Shown piece by piece: positions 88 to 50,337 of a DNA stretch of 64,000 nt; position 1 is the first letter of the stretch; every line of letters starts with the position of its first letter. The stretch comes from Chrysomallon squamiferum. Taxonomy: Eukaryota > Animalia > Mollusca. The position numbers and the translations under genes are program-made. Location of the stretch: assembly GCA_012295275.1 (NCBI GenBank), contig CM022677.1, positions 5,456,001 through 5,520,000 of the forward strand. Reading direction: 5' to 3'. The notes beneath the pieces were generated by a model. The model had not been told where the DNA came from. It did not search any database and worked only from the letters and a program-made list of their open reading frames with translations.

Positions 88-393
88 TCTTCAAAATAAA
101 AAATCAAGACGTGATAGATTTCAACTAAACTCTTGTTTACTGTTAAAAAAACAAAGTTCCACTATTAGCTGGCTTTCTAGCTTTTGGCTTTTTGACCATA
201 ATGCGCTTTTAACCCGAAGGTGATCCGTAGGGTTCAGGCTTCGCCCGAAGGAACGTTATCACCTTCGGGTTAAAAGTACATTATGGTCAAAAAGCCAAAA
301 GCTAGAAAGCCAGCTAATAGTGGAACTTTGTTTTTTTAACAGTAAACAAGAGTTAGGTAGAAATCTATCAGGTCATGATTTTTTCTTTGAAGA
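88..393. repeat. Long palindrome 1 (parvovirus-like terminal hairpin)
   Basis: Arms 128-224 and 258-354 are 97-nt reverse complements with 2 mismatches. The 33-nt spacer is 225-257 (ccgtagggttcaggcttcgcccgaaggaacgtt). Imperfect pairing extends to about 88-393. Confidence 0.9.
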
Positions 394-396
394 GAT

Positions 397-439
397 GTCT
401 ATATATGTCACGTGATATTGTCATGTGACATATATAGAC
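397..439. repeat. Small secondary hairpin
   Basis: gtctatatatgtcac ... gtgacatatatagac are perfect 15-nt inverted arms around a 13-nt spacer. Confidence 0.75.
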
Positions 440-520
440 TATAATAATAGTATTGCGATTAATTATTACTTCAGTCGTCTTCACGTCGTTGTATGTGATA
501 GATGTTCACAGCGTTAGGTA

Positions 521-846
521 TTGATCGAATACGCTTTCGATGCTTCTGGTGAACTTGCTACATCTGCTATAATAGATTCGACTGCACCAGCTATTACAGA
601 AATAATAGGAGCTGACAGTTTGTTATTGGAACCAGCTACAGCTATAGGACAGAGTATAGTGGAGTCGTCTGTTGAAGGTATTTCTACATATACTAAAAAC
701 AAGAGACATTAGATCAATTTGTCGACTTTGTTACACCGGATATAAAGGATATAGACGCTGACGTTTCTCCATCGGAACGACAGCAATTAGAGCAGGAAGA
801 GGACGAATACGTAACTTACGTATATAGGAATAGTCCGGTTTCATGA
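521..846 (+). pseudogene. Small viral-like ORF upstream of the capsid, apparently frameshifted
   Basis: ORF 521-712 continues after a 1-nt shift as DQFVDFVTPDIKDIDADVSPSERQQLEQEEDEYVTYVYRNSPVS*. Its TGA overlaps the capsid ATG (ATGA, 843-846). Confidence 0.4.
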
Positions 847-2987
847 ATAAAGGAAAACGTCTTCTGAATAAAAAGGAAGTGACGAGACTTTGGGCTATAG
901 CTAAATCCAAAGCATTTTCGATATTATCGGATTTCAATGTCCCATTTGAAGAACGACAAACCAGGTGGCTACAGATCAGACGTCAGTATCCAAATCTACA
1001 AATTCCTAATCAAAATTTCTATCAGGCAATACAGAATCTTAGGGAGAACTATAACGCTGCTGAAGATTCGGACGAAGACGACCCTTTCAGCACCCCTTTA
1101 TACCCAGACGACGACATCAACAACAACCAACAACCAGCAGCAGGGAGAGATATTGAACGATCCGGAAATCAAGATACTAAACCAGCTATGAAACGACAAA
1201 CAAGCGAACCAGCCGGTGGAAGTAATTCTAAAGTTGCTAATAATAACAAGCAACTGTCTCACAGGATATCGCAAGATGTCATAGAACAGTCTAATTCTAA
1301 AGGAACCTATCTTCAGCCTAACGAATCGGTGATGGAACCCGATTCGATTATGAACGAAAAGGTAACAGATACAGGAGGAAGTGAGGCTGTCGAAGGTGCT
1401 CCGATCGCTTCGGCTACAGGTAATAATGTTTTGTACCAAGGATTTGGAGGATGTACTAAAGGAGCTGATCCCCGATATATAACGATAAAAAAGACATTTA
1501 AACGAACATTTACGAGTACCATTAATTTTACTAAAACCAGAAAGGCTATTATGAAAATATTAGATAATGATACGGATGATGTAAATTGGAAAAAAGCTAT
1601 AGGTGATCCTAATGTTTGTGAATTAACGTTTAATCACGGTGGTCATATTACACCCTATTGGTATAAACAGGCCAGCACCAGACCAGATGACTGGAATTTA
1701 CCCGATGATTTTGTTGGATATAAAATAAAACGATTTGGTTTCAATATAAACAATATGATTATACATGTATTAAATAATAATAAATCAGATCCGAATGAGG
1801 TACCAGTAATGGCACCTCCAAATTCACGTGTGTGGACGTTCACCGATATCTATAATGATTATGGTCCACCGGAGAAGAATTTAAACCTATCTCACAACCA
1901 TTATTTTAGAGATGAGGAATGTATGGATAGTACTAGTCTTAGGAGTATACCAGTTCAACCCGATCGTAAACTGTATCTGCCCAGTGACGTAGGAATGCAA
2001 TTATTAAACCACGCTTGGAATGGTGACGGAATAACATACACAGCCGAATCACCTAATTATATTTACGATATGAAAAAACACGATGGCTACAGAGAAACAG
2101 TCATAAGTGCTGGTGGTTTCGCTTTAGATTATACGTGTAAGGATTCACCGGTAGTGTTATTTCCATCTGAATCGTCTCAGACACTCAGTTGTACTGAAAT
2201 GTCTGGAATGTTCAAGAAAAATCACTATCAATGTTCAAACGAAAACAAAGGTAATTTGGAAGTATGGCCAACACATGACATTATAGTGACTAATACAACT
2301 ACACATCCTATGGGAACAGCAATAGCAACGTATTTTAATCATCAGTACAGAAAGGTTCACTATACGGCCTGTTTTCAAAATAATCCAGCTAAACTGCTCG
2401 GTGCTCCATCCCTTGTAGATGACGGTGGTACGAAACTTAGCAAGACAGGTGTAATGGCCAACGATGCCAATAATCCCATAGTAGATACGTGCAAAGATGG
2501 CACGCATAGACGAACGTTCCAATGCAACCGACCGCCCATTTTTTTAATCGGTTTATATCCTGATATAGAAAAAACAAGTGGTGGGGCTACACTGTTTTTT
2601 AATTATCATGCGAATATACAAATAACCTATTATAGCGAAGTAGAGTTTGTAGTGAGAACCGGAATGTGTCCAAAATACATACCCATAGGCTTGGACGGAT
2701 GTCCTGGTCCAATGCAAGGACTCACGTTCAAAGCTAACGATACGAAGCCAATGGGAAATAAAGACAATATCAAACATACCGAACAAGATCAATTTTTAGG
2801 TGAGAGTGCAAAAGAATATAAAGAACGAATTGAAAAAACCTGGAAAATGAGAACATTTGCTCCAATTTGGGATAACTGGAACAAACGTAAAGCTAGACGT
2901 AGACAATTGTGGCCTATTCACGGTGCATATGGAGATAGAAGTGTTCCGATAATGGCTAATGCTTTCGATTGGTCTTATCCTATATAA
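843..2987 (+). CDS. Parvovirus/densovirus-like capsid protein (VP), intact 714 aa, endogenous viral element
   Basis: Long intronless ORF. A disordered Gly/Ser-rich N-region is followed by YITIKKTFKRTF, then HITPYWYKQASTRPDDW..GYKIKRFGFNINNM (resembles the parvoviral TPW..SP.DW..F.L.NI core) and RPPIFLIGLYP..YHANIQITYYSEVEF (densovirus-like C-terminal strands). It is adjacent to an SF3 helicase and hairpins. AATAAA lies at 2992-2997. Confidence 0.85.
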   Translation: MNKGKRLLNKKEVTRLWAIAKSKAFSILSDFNVPFEERQTRWLQIRRQYPNLQIPNQNFYQAIQNLRENYNAAEDSDEDDPFSTPLYPDDDINNNQQPAAGRDIERSGNQDTKPAMKRQTSEPAGGSNSKVANNNKQLSHRISQDVIEQSNSKGTYLQPNESVMEPDSIMNEKVTDTGGSEAVEGAPIASATGNNVLYQGFGGCTKGADPRYITIKKTFKRTFTSTINFTKTRKAIMKILDNDTDDVNWKKAIGDPNVCELTFNHGGHITPYWYKQASTRPDDWNLPDDFVGYKIKRFGFNINNMIIHVLNNNKSDPNEVPVMAPPNSRVWTFTDIYNDYGPPEKNLNLSHNHYFRDEECMDSTSLRSIPVQPDRKLYLPSDVGMQLLNHAWNGDGITYTAESPNYIYDMKKHDGYRETVISAGGFALDYTCKDSPVVLFPSESSQTLSCTEMSGMFKKNHYQCSNENKGNLEVWPTHDIIVTNTTTHPMGTAIATYFNHQYRKVHYTACFQNNPAKLLGAPSLVDDGGTKLSKTGVMANDANNPIVDTCKDGTHRRTFQCNRPPIFLIGLYPDIEKTSGGATLFFNYHANIQITYYSEVEFVVRTGMCPKYIPIGLDGCPGPMQGLTFKANDTKPMGNKDNIKHTEQDQFLGESAKEYKERIEKTWKMRTFAPIWDNWNKRKARRRQLWPIHGAYGDRSVPIMANAFDWSYPI

Positions 2988-2999
2988 AACAAATAAAAC

Positions 3000-3039
<40 letters not shown>

Positions 3040-3137
3040 TTTAATAATAATATTTTGGTAACAATATGTCTAAAACTATTTCCTATTAACGGTGTATGAA
3101 TACAGTGAACAGTCTTAGTAAACGTTTACATTCATTT

Positions 3138-3232
3138 TGTCACGTACACATGTATGACGTTATGTTATGACGTCATGTTTAAATGGTTATAAATAAAACG
3201 TTCGTTTTGAAATTTTGTCACTCGTTAGTTGT
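3138..3232 (+). promoter_or_regulatory. Putative viral NS promoter (ACGT half-sites, CRE, TATA)
   Basis: Clustered ACGT motifs, TGACGTCA at 3168-3175, TATAAATA at 3188-3195 and Inr-like TCACTC/TTAGTT about 30 nt downstream, immediately 5' of the NS1 remnant. Confidence 0.5.
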
Positions 3233-3276
3233 TATTTCAACATTGACAAATAATATATATATATATATATATATAT

Positions 3277-4432
3277 AATCATACCTCGGGTGATAAACTG
3301 TTCAAAGCAGCTCGTTCGAAATACTTAGAAGAACAATCAGACAAAAGTGCATATGATCAGATCTGTGATTTAAACGATGCCATAGATCATTATATGACTC
3401 CAGAACACAGTTTGAAAATGTTTAACAGCTGGTGTATTGAACAAGAAATACCTGAACGATGGTTATTCTGTTTAATAGTCGGTTTGCTTAAAGGAAAAGG
3501 AAAGAAAAAAGTTGGCATATATTTCCAAGGAGAATCGGATTCGGGAAAAACAATGGTAACAAGTTCGATATTTGAATATTTACCATGTGCTGGAAAGATT
3601 GCCAAAGATAACTTTCCATGGCAGATGCTTGGAAACAAGAAAGTAGTGTTAGGTGAGGAAATATCTATTAACCAAACAAACATTGACAAGTATAAAGATT
3701 TACTGAGTGGAAGCAAAGCGACCCGCAAGAGAAAAGGAACTACGCCATGTTATTGTAGAGCAAATATCTGCATGTTAAATTCCAACAATACGTTCGGAGA
3801 TGGTTTGACAACGTCACAAATAAGTATCATGAAAACACGGTTGTACCTGGTACAGAAGTCAAAAAAAAAGTGATGTATTAAAACATTCGTATAATTTAAT
3901 GCATCCAAAGTTATTTACAATTGCACGTGAACCATATGAAGAGGAAATCAACATAGCGTTAGAAAACGATAGAGACTATTTTACTAATAAAGGAAATAAC
4001 AACATCAATGATAACACATTCGATGGTCGAAACAGTTTCTTTCATGACAATTTCGATGATAGTCAGCCAGTGCTAACAACACAGGAGCCAATATGTAATG
4101 ACATGCATGACGATAACATACAATACACCACTATATCTAGTGACGAAGAGGAGGAGTCGGAAACTAAGTCATACAATCCATCACAGGATCTGTTCATTAC
4201 ATCACAAAATGGTAAACAAACACAAGGTACTAAGAGACCACGTGAGGAGCAGGACGATCTAGACCAAAATTACATAACGGTCGGTTATGAACCGAGTGAA
4301 CCAGAACAAAAACGATTTAAATACTATATTCCAGAATCACAGCCATTCGAAGCAATGTTTACACAGACAATACTGGAAACACAAATGGATGCATTCAATA
4401 AGATGAAAGCAGAAAATGAATATGAACAGTAA
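3277..4432 (+). pseudogene. NS1: Parvoviral NS1/Rep remnant (SF3 helicase plus acidic C-terminus), 5'-truncated and frameshifted
   Basis: Walker A GIYFQGESDSGKT, Walker B VVLGEE, B' KDLLSG..RKRKG, motif C MLNSN and Arg-finger region KTRL. The frame is open from the (TA)n at ~3277, breaks at the A-run 3861-3869 and resumes in ORF 3899-4432. No HUH nuclease domain is visible. AATAAA lies at 4501-4506. Confidence 0.88.
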
Positions 4433-4607
4433 ACTTTTCAATGTTACGTCATTAATTAATATAGTTATATTCAAAACTATACTTATGTATTACAGTTTAA
4501 AATAAATAAAATAAATATATTATTGTTATTATTAAATCTTGTTATTATTTTAACAATATTTAAACTATAATACTCTTCAAAAAGAAACAAATAGTTGGAA
4601 GGAAAAT

Positions 4608-4857
4608 CTGATAGATTTCTACCTAACTCTTGTTAACTGTTAAAAAAACAAAGTTCCTCATTAGCTGGCTTTTTAGCTTTTTGGCTTTTTGACCATAATG
4701 CACTTTTAGCCCGAAGGTGATAACGTTCCTTCGGGCGAAGCCTGAACCCTACGGATCATAAGCTAAAAGTGCATTATGGTCAAAAAGCCAAAAAGCTAAA
4801 AACCCAGCTAATGAGGAACTTTGTTTTTTTAACAGTAAACAAGAGTTAGGTAGAAAT
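4608..4857. repeat. Long palindrome 2 (same family as palindrome 1, loop inverted)
   Basis: Arms ~4615-4721 and 4755-4857. Spacer 4722-4754 (aacgttccttcgggcgaagcctgaaccctacgg) is the exact reverse complement of spacer 225-257. Confidence 0.9.
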
Positions 4858-4858
4858 A

Positions 4859-5140
4859 ATGGATCAACATATAGAGATCAACAACGAAACGATGAATTAC
4901 TATGCAGTAATCATAGGTCCCAAGGACTATGATCTCGTCCATCCACAGTATCTTACAGCAAGAGCCCTTGCTAAAGACAAAGATGGCAAGTACGTAAAAA
5001 ACTTCATCAAAAGCTATATGATGGACCGTCAAGGTATGCTAGACAAAACAGCCGACCACTGGTCAACTCCACACACAGAATATCTACAAAAGGGTCATCA
5101 CAGAAATAAAAGAAGTGACAAGACTTTGGGCAATAGCTAA
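4859..5140 (+). CDS. Unassigned ORF inside the viral element (93 aa)
   Basis: ATG-initiated, non-repetitive ORF between hairpin 2 and capsid copy 2. It is not similar by eye to the region upstream of capsid copy 1. Confidence 0.3.
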   Translation: MDQHIEINNETMNYYAVIIGPKDYDLVHPQYLTARALAKDKDGKYVKNFIKSYMMDRQGMLDKTADHWSTPHTEYLQKGHHRNKRSDKTLGNS

Positions 5141-6889
5141 ATCTAAAGCATTATCTATATTAGCTGATTTAAATGTGACGGTTGATCAACGCCAAGATAG
5201 GTGGTTACAAATACGACGTCAGTATCCAAATTTACAAATACCTAATCAAAGTTTCTATAAGGCAATACAAGATCTTCGGGAAAACAATAACAAATTTGAG
5301 CATTCGGACGAAGAGGACCCTTTCGATACGCCTTTATACCCAGAAGACGAACCAATACAAATTACAACAAGATCAGAATCAAAATAAACAATGAAGAGAC
5401 AAACAAGTGAACCAGCAGGTGGATCAAGTTCCAAAGTGCCTAACAATAATCAGTTATCTGATAGAATATCGCAAGATGTACTAGAACAATCTAATTCTAA
5501 AGGAACATACCTTCAACTTCATGAATCTGTAATGGAACCTGATTCTGTTATGAATGAAGAAGTTACTGATACAGGTGGAAGCGAAGCTGTTGAAGGTGCT
5601 CCTATGGCTTCAGCTACAGGTAACAACGTTTTGTATCAAGGATTTGGAGGAACCACTAAAGGAGCTAATCCTAGATATATAACTATTAAAAAAACATTCA
5701 AACGAAAATTTACTAGTGTTATAAATTTTACTAAGACTAGGAAAGCTACAATGAAAGTATTAGATAATGGAACAGAAAATACTAATTGGAAAAAAGCTAT
5801 AGGTGATCCTAATGTTTGTGAATTAACATTTAATCATGGAGGACATATTATACCATATTGGTATAAGCAAGCTAGCACTAAACCTGATCACTGGAATTGA
5901 CCAGATGAATTTGTTGGATATAAAATTAAAAAATTTGGATTTAATATAAATAATATGATAATACATGTTTTAAATAATACTAAATCAGATCCAAATGAAG
6001 TACCAGTGATGGCACCTCCAAACGCACGAGTTTGGACATTTACAGATATTTACAATGATTATGGATTACCGGAAAGAAATTTAAAGTTGTCACATAATAA
6101 TAATTTTTTAGATGACGAATGTATGGATAACACATCTCAAAGAAGCATACCGGTTCAACCAGATCGTAAACTATATGTACCTATGATATAGGTATGCAAT
6201 TGTTAAATAATGCTTGGAATGGTAATGGTATATTGTATCAAGCAGAAACACCTAATTACATATATGATATGAAGAAACATGATGGATATAGAGAAACGGT
6301 TATTAGTGCAGGTGGATTTGGATTAGATTATACATGTAAAGATTCCCCACTTGTTATATTTCCAGGAGAATCCAGTCATACTTTAAATTTTACTCAAATG
6401 ACAGGAAATATTAGGAAAGATAGATATCAATGTAGCAATGAAAATAAAGACAATTTAGAAGTGTGGCCAACACATGAAATTACAGTAACTAATGTATCAA
6501 CACATCCTATGGCAACTGCAATAACCACATATTTTAATCATCATTATACAGCTTGTTACCAGAACAATGCATCTAAAGTTTTGGGTGCTCCATCAATGGT
6601 AGATGATGGAGGTACTAAAATGGCTAAAACTGGTGTAATGTCAAATGATGCAGATTATCCGAACATTAATACATATATAGATGGATCGCATAGAAGAACG
6701 TTTCAATGTAATAGACCTCCAATATTCCTAATTGGTTTATATCCAGATGTGGAAAAAACTACTAATGGAGCTACATTATTTTTTAATTATCATACAAATA
6801 TACAAATTACGTACTACAGCGAAGTTGAATTTTTGGTCAGAACCGGTGTGTGTCCTAAGTATATACCAATAGGTTTAGGTGGATGTTAA
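5105..6889 (+). pseudogene. Second, diverged parvovirus-like capsid gene (pseudogenised, 3'-truncated)
   Basis: Colinear with 843-2987. Lesions: in-frame stops at 5385-5387 and 5898-5900, a frameshift near 6185, a 5-codon deletion (QYRKV), and truncation after PIGLGGC. Confidence 0.9.
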
Positions 6890-6916
6890 AGTACATTTGG
6901 TCAAAAAGCCAAAAGC
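6885..6916. repeat. Fragment of hairpin arm at the virus-host junction
   Basis: gttaaagtacatttggtcaaaaagccaaaagc matches 269-302 with two 1-nt deletions. Confidence 0.8.
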
Positions 6917-7139
6917 CAGTCTGTTCAACTCTGTTAGTTAAATAGGTCAACTGATTCCATTTTATGTTTTAACGATGTTTTATAGGGTACATTTTTACCA
7001 GAACTCTTGGTATTTATTTATTTTAAGTTTTGATTAGATTATTAAGTACAGTATTCTTTCAAAACTAAATTATTTAAAAATATAAAATTAAATTTAAAAA
7101 AATATTATCTCCCTTAAACCAAAATCATTTTAAAAAAGT

Positions 7140-44853: not shown

Positions 44854-45053
44854 NNNNNNNNNNNNNNNNNNNNNNNNNNNNNNNNNNNNNNNNNNNNNNN
44901 NNNNNNNNNNNNNNNNNNNNNNNNNNNNNNNNNNNNNNNNNNNNNNNNNNNNNNNNNNNNNNNNNNNNNNNNNNNNNNNNNNNNNNNNNNNNNNNNNNNN
45001 NNNNNNNNNNNNNNNNNNNNNNNNNNNNNNNNNNNNNNNNNNNNNNNNNNNNN
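44854..45053. other. Assembly gap (200 N)
   Basis: Run of N characters. Confidence 1.
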
Positions 45054-49604: not shown

Positions 49605-50279
49605 CTAACAGGATCCTTCAAGTTCCAAGACTGCTTCGAAAAGTGTTACTGCATTTGGAAAATCAGAACCATCTTTTCTTTTCCGATTATCAATGGACTT
49701 TTGAATAAGTTCAATAGAATATCCCATTTCCAAAACTGCCTGGATCGCTGGGCTGTAGACATAATTACTACTCGAGCTGTCACCACTTGTTGCTTGAGTC
49801 ACAACGCTATTCACAGATTTTACAAAACAGCTGTTGTCGGCTTTATTGCGGCTCTATTCAACAATATTCGTTTTATTTTTCGAGTCCTTCTTTAATTCCT
49901 CAACTTCAACCATTTTCCTTATTTCATCAACGTCCAGTTTGTCAGCGAATTCACAGTTCTTAGCCCATTCTTTGTGAACAACTGGCGGAAAATCATCGTC
50001 ATCCCAGTCACGCAAAGTTAGTCCACAATGAAAACATCTTGCGCGATCCGCCGATCCTATGTAGAAAAATCCACAGTGAGCCAAAACACTGGGCTTCTGC
50101 AAGGGTGATAAGAGCGGCCATCCAACGAAGCTTTCCAACCTTTTTTCATAGATCTCGTACTCCCTGTATTTTGGAATACTACCAGAACTACTAGTACTAC
50201 TAATGCCTTTGTAATTTTTGAACGTCTCCCAACTTATGTTTGAATTCACTGGAACTGAATCTGTCTGAATATCAGACAT
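49605..50279 (-). pseudogene. Inhibitor-of-apoptosis (IAP/BIRC) gene exon: one BIR plus UBA, interrupted by an in-frame TAG
   Basis: YEKRLESFVGWP..LAHCGFFYIGSADRARCFHCGLTLRDWDDDDFPPVVHKEWAKNCEF fits C-x2-C-x16-H-x6-C. After the TAG at 49856-49854 the same frame gives SPAIQAVLEMGYSIELIQKSI..FPNAVTLFEAVL (IAP-type UBA). A possible next exon lies at ~49069-48952. Confidence 0.9.
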
Positions 50280-50337
50280 TTTGATAAATTCGAGCAACTG
50301 ATTAGCGAGTATAAATGGCGTCGTCTATACTTTAGAA

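Follow-up and report, generated by a model that had tools for sequence, protein, structure and literature searches.

In the 64-kb stretch of Chrysomallon squamiferum DNA analysed here (the window), we identified a ~7-kb endogenous cluster of pieces of a divergent parvovirus-like virus, in which two large palindromes, H1 and H2, are very probably viral telomeres, and in which a capsid-like gene and NS1 lie between them on the same strand, as assembled with the capsid-like gene first. We consider that this capsid-first arrangement is, with a probability of roughly 0.55, the gene order of the virus itself. The source of the cluster is likely an unclassified parvovirus-like virus, present as integrated DNA, and the stretch 112–4857 likely represents one near-complete genome with H1 and H2 as left and right telomeres, composed, as assembled, of hairpin, promoter, small ORF, capsid-like gene, polyA, P2, NS1 (preceded by a gap), polyA and hairpin (Table 1). 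H1 loop to H2 loop amounts to 4497 nt, to which ~980 nt (~327 missing NS1 codons) are added on the assumption that H1–H2 is one unit; the resulting size, ~5.5–5.7 kb once the NS1 gap is counted, is thus inside the 3.9–6.3 kb range given for parvovirus genomes (PMC12297876) and agrees with a genome-size criterion of ~4–6 kb. After H2 the order is NS1 5' fragment, VP2 and an arm remnant, that is NS then VP; this remnant is the final viral piece, past which host-like DNA begins. Two capsid variants with dS ~1.4 sit in one locus.

Table 1. Features of the viral cluster (positions in the window; strand as +, − or. for none)
Feature	Positions	Strand	Details
Mirrored diverged 'head'	1–111	−	CRE-like TGACGTCA at 76–83, minus-strand TATA at 68, 5'-UTR-like stretch; points out of the window
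Palindrome H1	112–370	.	113-bp arms (112–224/258–370), 33-nt loop
Candidate promoter P1	371–517	+	ACGT 410, TATA-like 439, Inr-like TCAGT 471; degenerate inner terminal repeat
Degenerate small acidic ORF, two frames	518–846	+	518–709 and 697–846; no Pfam match
Capsid-like gene copy 1 (VP1)	843–2987	+	uninterrupted frame of 714 codons; PLA2 motif absent
VP tail	2988–3085	+	AATAAA at 2992, then (AAT)n run
Candidate NS promoter P2	3086–3252	+	five ACGT, CRE 3168, TATA 3188, Inr-like 3225/3232
(TA)n run	3253–3279	.	break where ~327 NS1 codons are missing
NS1 3' part	3280–4432	+	SF3 helicase with Walker motifs A (3529), B (3643) and C (3772); acidic tail; frameshift near 3870; without HUH nuclease
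NS tail	4433–4608	+	AATAAA signals 4501–4515; degenerate inner-repeat motif runs into H2
Palindrome H2	4609–4857	.	in opposite orientation to H1; arms of 96 bp flank an asymmetric core of 51 nt; right arm truncated at 4857
NS1 5' fragment, first ~82 codons	4859–5104	+	starts 2 nt past the cut H2 arm
Capsid-like gene copy 2 (VP2)	5105–6886	+	77% nt identity to copy 1; 3' end missing
Third hairpin arm remnant, H1 type	6888–6919	+	94% over 33 nt versus 273–305

The earlier note had described the two loops as exact reverse complements, and this holds: 225–257 matches 4722–4754, within a longer exact reverse-complement match of 49 nt (221–269 and 4710–4758), and in direct, same-strand comparison the loops are identical at only 12 of 33 positions. 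The dimensions then given, a 230-nt palindrome and a 33-nt arm spacing in H2, have to be corrected, as H1 spans 259 nt with 113-bp arms, its mirror symmetry continuing, weaker, out to ~83/398, and the long arms of H2 are 51 nt apart, its 33-nt loop being closed by only 4 bp beside an asymmetric bubble in a predicted branched fold. The left and right arms of H1 are identical to the left arm of H2 in 92 of 101 and 94 of 101 columns, respectively. Thirteen arm columns are variable (one end-trimming column being left out of this count): six, representing four events, are common to both arms of one palindrome and different in the other, seven concern a single arm, and none follows a left-versus-right pattern. 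The four events, each present in the two arms of a palindrome, form the pattern that fold-back copying would leave. The H1 arms also carry A4-5GC-type repeats, candidate NS1 binding sites.

GAA mini-hairpin motifs, another element of that description, are present in both loops, but on the H1 plus strand the 9-nt motif shows a TTC loop, with the GAA form on the minus strand. GCGAAGC occurs at 238–244 (minus), at 4735–4741 (plus) and at 5581 inside capsid copy 2 (three sites versus 0.6 expected), and all five CCGAAGG sites of the 64-kb window fall within H1/H2 (0.48 expected). Folding as single-stranded DNA gave hairpins for both cores (z −8.3 to −10.3), but the isolated 33-nt loops folded no better than shuffles (z +0.9 and −0.6). 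The inverted loops do not demonstrate flip/flop: with H1 marking a head and H2 a tail, near-identical inverted terminal repeats already give reverse-complementary loops without a flip/flop event. No strand change was seen among the 15 of 23 joints listed, in unitigs that cannot span the stem and with one head and one tail only. Nor do both hairpins directly precede a capsid gene, since H2 lies after the NS1 3' end and before the NS1 5' fragment, and this NS1 N-terminus (4859–5104) separates it from the capsid copy starting at ~5105.

The reading of the hairpins as replication telomeres or origins is, apart from flip/flop, supported by their anatomy, namely the mirrored differences, the confinement of the hairpins to the cluster, the lack of a target-site duplication, the position at cassette ends, which suggests genome termini, and the adjoining NS1 SF3 helicase. 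The alternative already raised, a host non-autonomous element (MITE/Crypton-like, with a GGCGAAGCC centre) inserted three times in a viral EVE, is very improbable. Palindromic repeats with a 9-nt GGCGAAGCC centre do occur in marine invertebrate genomes, Crypton-type elements may be devoid of target-site duplications, and arm contigs are very deep, their summed depth, which is not a copy number, being 49–377x that of the locus's own contigs and 1.4–8.3x that of the VP variants. However, two hairpins with two arms each per viral genome predict an arm/VP ratio of ~4, and the hairpin flanks have a degenerate inner repeat in common rather than random host DNA. Within the window, arm 14-mers are found only at H1, H2 and 6898–6916, so that all three copies are inside 7 kb of viral DNA; no comparable inverted repeat was found in the 57 kb of host DNA (7000–64000), and no target-site duplication of 2–12 nt at four boundary pairs. 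Together with the mirrored arm differences, these absences make viral telomeres likely and a host MITE unlikely. An Rfam search gave no match. Seven further loci resembling the arms match over at most 20–24 nt, outside palindromes and without NS1/VP homology, and were treated as chance.

The NS1 gene is broken at this locus. Its helicase is recognized by PF01057 above cut-off (E 3e-8), with NS1/Rep helicases as best PDB matches, and its 3' part is 68–70% identical to relatives over ~200 aa, with a C-terminal part of 190 codons versus 189 in the relatives. The HUH nuclease region is absent from the window; in four of five relatives an HUH-type motif was detected by pattern, with no profile match. 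The 5' fragment is 47–54% identical to the N-termini of P0025, P0019 and P0020 (E to 4e-27). VP1 is likely a capsid gene, and its product may be a jelly-roll protein: its first matches in an atlas comparison were parvovirus VP clusters (0.94 and 0.91, low recognition), and nine of the top ten rows in a fold search of the capsid model were parvovirus-type capsids (E 1.5e-5; model pLDDT 26, TM 0.18), the two structure models having pLDDT of only 27 and 26. The capsid-like protein gave no Pfam or PDB sequence match. VP2 is interrupted by stops at 5385–5387 and 5898–5900 and by a frameshift near 6183, and the two capsid copies diverged under purifying selection (dN/dS 0.08, dS ~1.4 over 569 codons). 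Diverged capsid copies are multi-copy and differ between runs.

Relatives were retrieved from ENA (P0001–P0004, P0006–P0028) and Logan (P0005), and as a gene model of the sea slug Plakobranchus ocellatus, PoB_004494800 (P0029). Those from ENA and Logan have an NS1 with HUH and Walker motifs and a VP (690 aa) 52–57% identical to VP1, and in ENA single contigs (8.4–452 kb) contain several diverged NS and VP copies, which recalls the cluster described here; P0029, in contrast, is only 29–35% identical and is modelled as NS then VP. No related DNA was found in viral, metagenome and genome contig collections, and no named virus is among the protein matches.

Segment 1–111, a candidate promoter, aligns to the reverse complement of 371–500 with a score reached by none of 300 shuffles, the distal 45 nt of this alignment being equalled or beaten in 24 of 1864 host windows. 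Because the left flank mirrors the right-hand promoter, H1 is read as a head-to-head junction, a product of hairpin replication in the account of PMC1131931, and the possibility that H1 and H2 are both tail-to-head (double-D) junctions was rejected for H1. The head-to-head joint and the inverted cores speak against a circular (CRESS-like) genome. Contigs bridge the link from the arm (from 335) to P1 in three of four runs (X2, X3 and X5), and that from the NS tail to the arm in all four. P2, whose TATA overlaps an AATAAA, is similar to the sequence preceding NS1 in P0021 (nine of 509 host windows reach that score, and it is not the top match window-wide), a weak sequence indication of an NS promoter; extending the comparison to P0025 yielded nothing. 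Shuffles reaching the score for the 11 region pairs numbered 78, 19, 0, 190, 13, 272, 39, 2, 66, 40 and 5 of 300, and only the 0 is relied on. A homology between VP and NS tails was discarded (272 of 300 shuffles score as well). The similarity of P2 to the NS tail (2 of 300), both AT-rich, is unexplained, and a sigma-70 promoter scan is irrelevant for an animal host.

Several features argue for the capsid-first order. VP1 reads without interruption from an ATG of its own, which overlaps the stop of the small ORF coupled to it (ATGA at 843–846); NS1 ends at the length of its relatives, with polyA signals and then H2 behind it; and the VP stop is followed by polyA and then by promoter motifs, with no hairpin or inner-repeat remnant found between VP polyA and P2. 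In two other contigs a single unitig carries the VP 3' end ahead of P2 or NS1 (joining 2940 to 3127 in X1, and 2947 to 3381 in X5 with a depth of 77 versus ~26), both joints being single contigs with unknown intervening letters, one with only 22 nt on the short side. By hand count, this order needs four deletions, two segments five and the normal order ~7. Against it, the VP-to-P2 and P2-to-NS links cross (AAT)n and (TA)n with no bridging contig among the 32 of 880 pieces listed, an X1 joint that leads from 4975 back to 3166 agrees with no reading considered here, the pieces past H2 likewise run NS then VP, and P0029 has NS1 before VP, although a hairpin could lie concealed in an intron. VP before NS may reflect post-integration scrambling, as parvoviral EVEs can be strongly jumbled (PMC8982415), and, since H1 and H2 differ, the H1–H2 unit may be chimeric, stemming from two variants.

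In the preferred reading, each genome end would have folded back and been copied arm from arm in rolling-hairpin replication, keeping the palindrome self-consistent, with NS1 nicking beside the stem and the GAA mini-hairpins stiffening the single-stranded apex. Recombination, in common arms, between two diverged virus variants would have produced H1 as a head-to-head bridge. H2 would represent the tail end, beyond which deletions would have brought together the NS1 start, the capsid gene of the second variant and the third arm remnant.

It is possible, though doubtful, that the telomeres belong to a virus with the normal NS-then-VP order and that the locus is a jumbled EVE, deletions having placed hairpins after NS and before VP. 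The P0029 model, the microsatellites at key junctions and the segment from H2 through NS 5' and VP2 to the arm remnant, resembling a normal genome with internal deletions, agree with this, as does the shrimp IHHNV EVE, described as jumbled with terminal pieces repeated (PMC8982415). Yet a whole cassette would have been cleanly removed twice with VP and its coupled upstream ORF left intact, and with NS still ending in its natural stop and followed by polyA and the inner repeat motif, and the second promoter between VP and NS would be unexplained. A bipartite parvovirus appears unlikely; its VP and NS segments, each bearing hairpins that are near-identical (H1 type and H2 type), would have integrated together, one hairpin between them being lost. 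This reading would account for VP and NS each having a promoter and polyA, for the type-specific mirrored differences of H1 and H2, for a relative's 680-aa NS1 on a 2601-nt contig and for high-depth variant contigs over VP and arms but none over NS at 88% likeness, and the Acheta domesticus segmented densovirus (AdSDV) offers a precedent (PMC10267136). However, the interval between VP polyA and P2 is without a hairpin or inner-repeat remnant, two other contigs join the VP end to P2/NS, other variants may just have an NS that is less than 88% alike, and short contigs break at hairpins anyway. We give little credence to an ambisense, densovirus-like genome with H1 as natural end-to-end junction, promoters on both sides and an NS cassette inverted after integration: promoter motifs do face outward on both sides of H1, and 1–111 and P2 have the CRE and TATA context in common (5 of 300 shuffles), but 1–111 is closer to P1 than to P2 (0 versus 5 of 300; UTR score 26 versus 18), NS and VP are on one strand in P0029, and the inversion would need a breakpoint located precisely where the polyA region gives way to the inner repeat.

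Homotelomeric parvoviruses such as Bemisia tabaci ambidensovirus (BtaDV) and AAV likewise end in long palindromes that have an asymmetric core, are near-identical at the two ends and lie beside NS1 (SF3) and capsid genes; BtaDV is described with 207-nt ITRs and a 55-nt flip-flop core, partly retained in one EVE (PMC12297876), and AAV with head-to-head dimers (PMC1131931). Unlike in these viruses, here the ends are 92–94% alike, not identical, and, as assembled, VP precedes NS on one strand. AdSDV, according to the cited account, has self-contained NS and VP cassettes with terminal hairpins in common, but termini that form no ITRs, a VP of 378 aa and a PLA2 ORF (PMC10267136), whereas here VP has 714 aa without a PLA2 motif and the cassettes are contiguous. 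IHHNV EVEs of Penaeus monodon are similarly described as kilobase clusters in which viral pieces are repeated or deleted and terminal palindromes sit at the joints, but as 97–99% copies of one virus (PMC8982415), whereas here two variants and full 250-nt palindromes are kept.

The mirror-image loops and GAA mini-hairpins are expected parvovirus telomere anatomy, preserved unusually well, in a locus that marks a lineage without a named close relative. According to reviews, all parvoviruses have NS on the left and VP on the right, an order from which this locus departs as assembled, so that a capsid-first monosense genome would, if true, be a new layout. The intact termini, promoters and head-to-head joint of diverged variants offer a rare view of parvoviral DNA integration and accumulation, and depth differences between runs make persistence, as array or episome, directly testable. 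Tentatively, this could be an undescribed marine-invertebrate parvovirus lineage, capsid-first, persisting as a multi-copy family of variable copy number (arrays or episomes), whose new variants would recombine into resident copies with the common hairpin as landing site and which would be partly mobile-element-like.

Exact reverse complementarity links the 33-nt loops of the two palindromes, H1 and H2, as the earlier note had described, and the exact match between them reaches 49 nt. When folded as single-stranded DNA, the cores of both palindromes form hairpins far above shuffled sequences (z -8.3 to -10.3), but the bare 33-nt loops do not exceed shuffles. The folding model is blind to the extra stability of GAA mini-hairpins. 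GCGAAGC, documented as an extra-stable mini-hairpin (PMC13037366), lies on the minus strand in H1 and on the plus strand in H2, and CCGAAGG, a mini-hairpin present in a plasmid priming signal (PMC13037366), has all five of its sites in the 64 kb inside the two palindromes; any role of these mini-hairpins in H1 and H2 is putative.

Features of the parvovirus-like cluster (window positions)
Feature	Position	Description
Palindrome H1	112-370	113-bp arms; loop 225-257 at centre
Capsid-like gene (VP), copy 1	843-2987	Intact ORF, 714 codons
NS1 3' part, SF3 helicase of parvovirus type and tail	3280-4432	PF01057; Walker motifs
Palindrome H2	4609-4857	96-bp arms, 51 nt apart; loop 4722-4754 at centre
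NS1 N-terminal fragment	4859-5104	First ~82 residues
Capsid-like gene (VP), copy 2	5105-6886	77% DNA identity to copy 1; two stops, one frameshift
Third arm remnant	6888-6919	Last piece of viral cluster

The loop symmetry had been attributed to flip/flop inversion or to inverted terminal repeats (ITRs), and each hairpin had been said to precede a capsid gene. The right side of H1 leads to promoter motifs and then to a capsid-like gene, as expected for a genome head, and the left side of H2 is preceded by the NS1 stop and polyA signals, as in a tail, an arrangement bridged by contigs in four of four runs; to the right of H2, the sequence encodes the start of NS1 and not a capsid gene. Since the ends of a genome with ITRs, such as those described for BtaDV (PMC12297876), are reverse complements by construction, no inversion is needed to explain the two loops. 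Flip/flop would appear as both loop orientations at one type of end, across a stem that contigs cannot span, and there is no strand change at any of the contig joints listed (15 of 23), so that flip/flop is not demonstrated here. Loose ends at 260, 345, 6884-6885 and 6918-6920 in sequencing runs X1-X3 indicate that further hairpin variants exist, with H1-type and H2-type sequence both seen beside the stem. At the NS1-start joint (4854-4858), the same 4 nt (AAAT) occur in the truncated H2 arm and where the leader of P2, a candidate promoter, ends, a microhomology that could be chance in AT-rich DNA.

We consider the palindromes to be viral telomeres (probability about 0.9). In the alignment of the four arms, with one end-trimming column dropped, six of the 13 variable columns (four events) are common to both arms of one palindrome and different in the other, seven are restricted to a single arm and none follows left versus right. 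Because the differences are mirrored in both its arms, each palindrome seems to have been corrected against itself, which matches fold-back copying, although host gene conversion could also produce it. Within the window, the arm sequence was found only at H1, H2 and the arm remnant; no target-site duplication was found at the palindromes, and what flanks them is not random host DNA but a degenerate inner repeat common to both. These observations support the telomere reading, and they leave a host MITE, the alternative raised in the earlier note, very improbable, since the 57 kb of host DNA contain no comparable inverted repeat. The arm contigs are 49-377 times as deep as the contigs of the locus itself, and the variant capsid contigs are also deep (summed, 13-54 times); the ratio of arm to VP summed depth, which is not copy number, is 1.4-8.3, two hairpins per genome predicting about 4. 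An unrelated repeat (L002 1179-1233, L005 2465-2519, L001 1458-1512) has a 24-nt match to the A-rich arm repeats; GCGAAGC lies some 22 nt upstream of the match, no palindrome surrounds it, and the match is probably chance.

Sequence searches of Pfam and PDB found no match for the product of VP copy 1. We named it capsid-like because language-model features place parvovirus capsids first (0.94, low recognition), a fold search retrieved parvovirus-type capsids in nine of the top 10 rows, albeit from a poor model (pLDDT 26, TM 0.18), and a Plakobranchus gene model carries a homologue fused downstream of NS1 (E 4e-24); the relative P0007 scores 0.91 against parvovirus capsids with the language model. 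Between the two copies, dN/dS is 0.08 and dS about 1.4, which means that their divergence took place between functioning viral genes and not between duplicates in the host. The observed/expected CpG ratio is 1.02 in copy 1, 0.57 in copy 2 (5115-6886), 0.90 in NS and 0.46 in host DNA; the differing depletion of the two copies hints that two variants arrived at different times, and copy 2 could have inserted earlier or come from a differently methylated lineage. Variant capsid contigs (5160-5920, 787-995), about 88-94% alike, occur in runs X1, X2, X3 and X5 at 2.6x, 15-24x, 5-14x and 3-13x the depth of the locus's own, respectively, and many of their variant letters are common to runs of three studies, which points to a multi-copy family that differs from sample to sample (depth is not copy number) and may exist as arrays or free DNA.

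The NS1 3' part carries a frameshift near 3870 and, compared with P0025, a full-length relative, is missing some 327 codons at its N-terminal end; with its NS1 gene broken, the locus cannot replicate by itself. The locus was found in seven runs of three studies (word share 0.69 or more), with near-identical contigs over 1 kb in all four runs compared in detail, and is therefore likely a germline insertion, the contig join to host DNA not being among the bridged pieces listed. The host DNA is microsatellite-rich (29% GC), with an assembly gap of 200 N (44854-45053) amid long simple-repeat tracts and an exon encoding a BIR (inhibitor of apoptosis) domain (49857-50324, minus strand, E 1e-17).

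From H1 to H2, the assembled order is candidate promoter P1, a small degenerate ORF with its stop overlapping the start of VP, VP, polyA, the promoter-like P2, a (TA)n break, the NS1 3' part and polyA, that is, capsid first and NS second on the same strand. The loop-to-loop length is 4497 nt; adding the missing NS1 codons brings it to about 5.5 kb, and counting both palindromes in full, to about 5.7 kb. P2 is similar to what lies upstream of NS1 in one relative; 9 of 509 host windows score at least as high, and window-wide the likeness is not significant. For the parvovirus initiation factor, the two ACGT motifs of a pair are 5 nt apart. Paired ACGT motifs, known to be bound by this factor (title cited in PMC1185569), occur at 69-81 (spacing 5) and 3142-3173, near the termini and P2, where ACGT density is 15-25 per kb, against 1.7 in host DNA and 3.5-6 in coding parts. 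When the promoter region on the right of H1 is reverse-complemented, positions 1-111 align to it at 87 of 107 letters, with many gaps; 0 of 300 shuffles reached the score, the best result among the 11 pairs tested. This mirrored sequence makes H1 a likely head-to-head joint, of a kind that hairpin replication is known to produce (PMC1131931), here between two heads that have diverged, which suggests that variants recombined within the arms they share.

We slightly favour capsid-first as the virus's own order, and two other contigs place the VP 3' end before P2 or NS1. Against it, both central junctions cross microsatellites that stay unbridged in the 32 pieces listed (of 880), and one contig joint (4975 back to 3166) has no explanation. 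NS also precedes VP in the sea-slug model and in the pieces after H2, and jumbled parvoviral EVEs are on record (PMC8982415). We regard a scrambled locus of a virus of normal order (NS then VP) as unlikely, a two-segment virus as slightly less likely still, and an ambisense genome with an inversion as hardly credible. Among known exceptions to the normal order, AdSDV, described as bipartite with non-ITR termini (PMC10267136), differs from this locus, as does SwaBA-MePV-1, where extra cassettes lie upstream yet NS1 then VP is kept (PMC13426907).

Beyond the palindromes, mirrored differences, gene pieces and selection between capsid copies observed here, rolling-hairpin steps established for parvoviruses may be proposed. 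The 3' hairpin would prime synthesis; NS1 would bind the stem repeats and nick, candidate sites being the A4-5GC units at 289-311 and 4782-4805; and the hairpin would then be copied, arm from arm. Ends left unresolved or recombined would give head-to-head joints, and the germline may have captured linear duplex or concatemer DNA, with later deletions.

The hairpin ends would work like a homotelomeric parvovirus terminus, and helicase, hairpins and size agree with Parvoviridae. The NS-left/VP-right order, stated as general for parvoviruses (PMC11357303, PMC12297876), is not that of the assembled locus, and the HUH domain and capsid fold are putative; we therefore use the term parvovirus-like and do not assign it to that family. 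The related sequences are ENA and Logan proteins without names, together with the sea-slug gene model; ENA contigs of 8.4, 61 and 297 kb each carry several diverged NS and VP copies together, and one of 452 kb carries VP pieces only. The largely open-access literature covered on reversed order and mollusc parvoviral EVEs does not describe this lineage or layout, although supplementary EVE catalogues may list the sequences. Loop symmetry and mini-hairpins are anatomy that one would expect; what makes the locus interesting is that an unnamed lineage likely has a capsid-first layout and persists in multiple copies.
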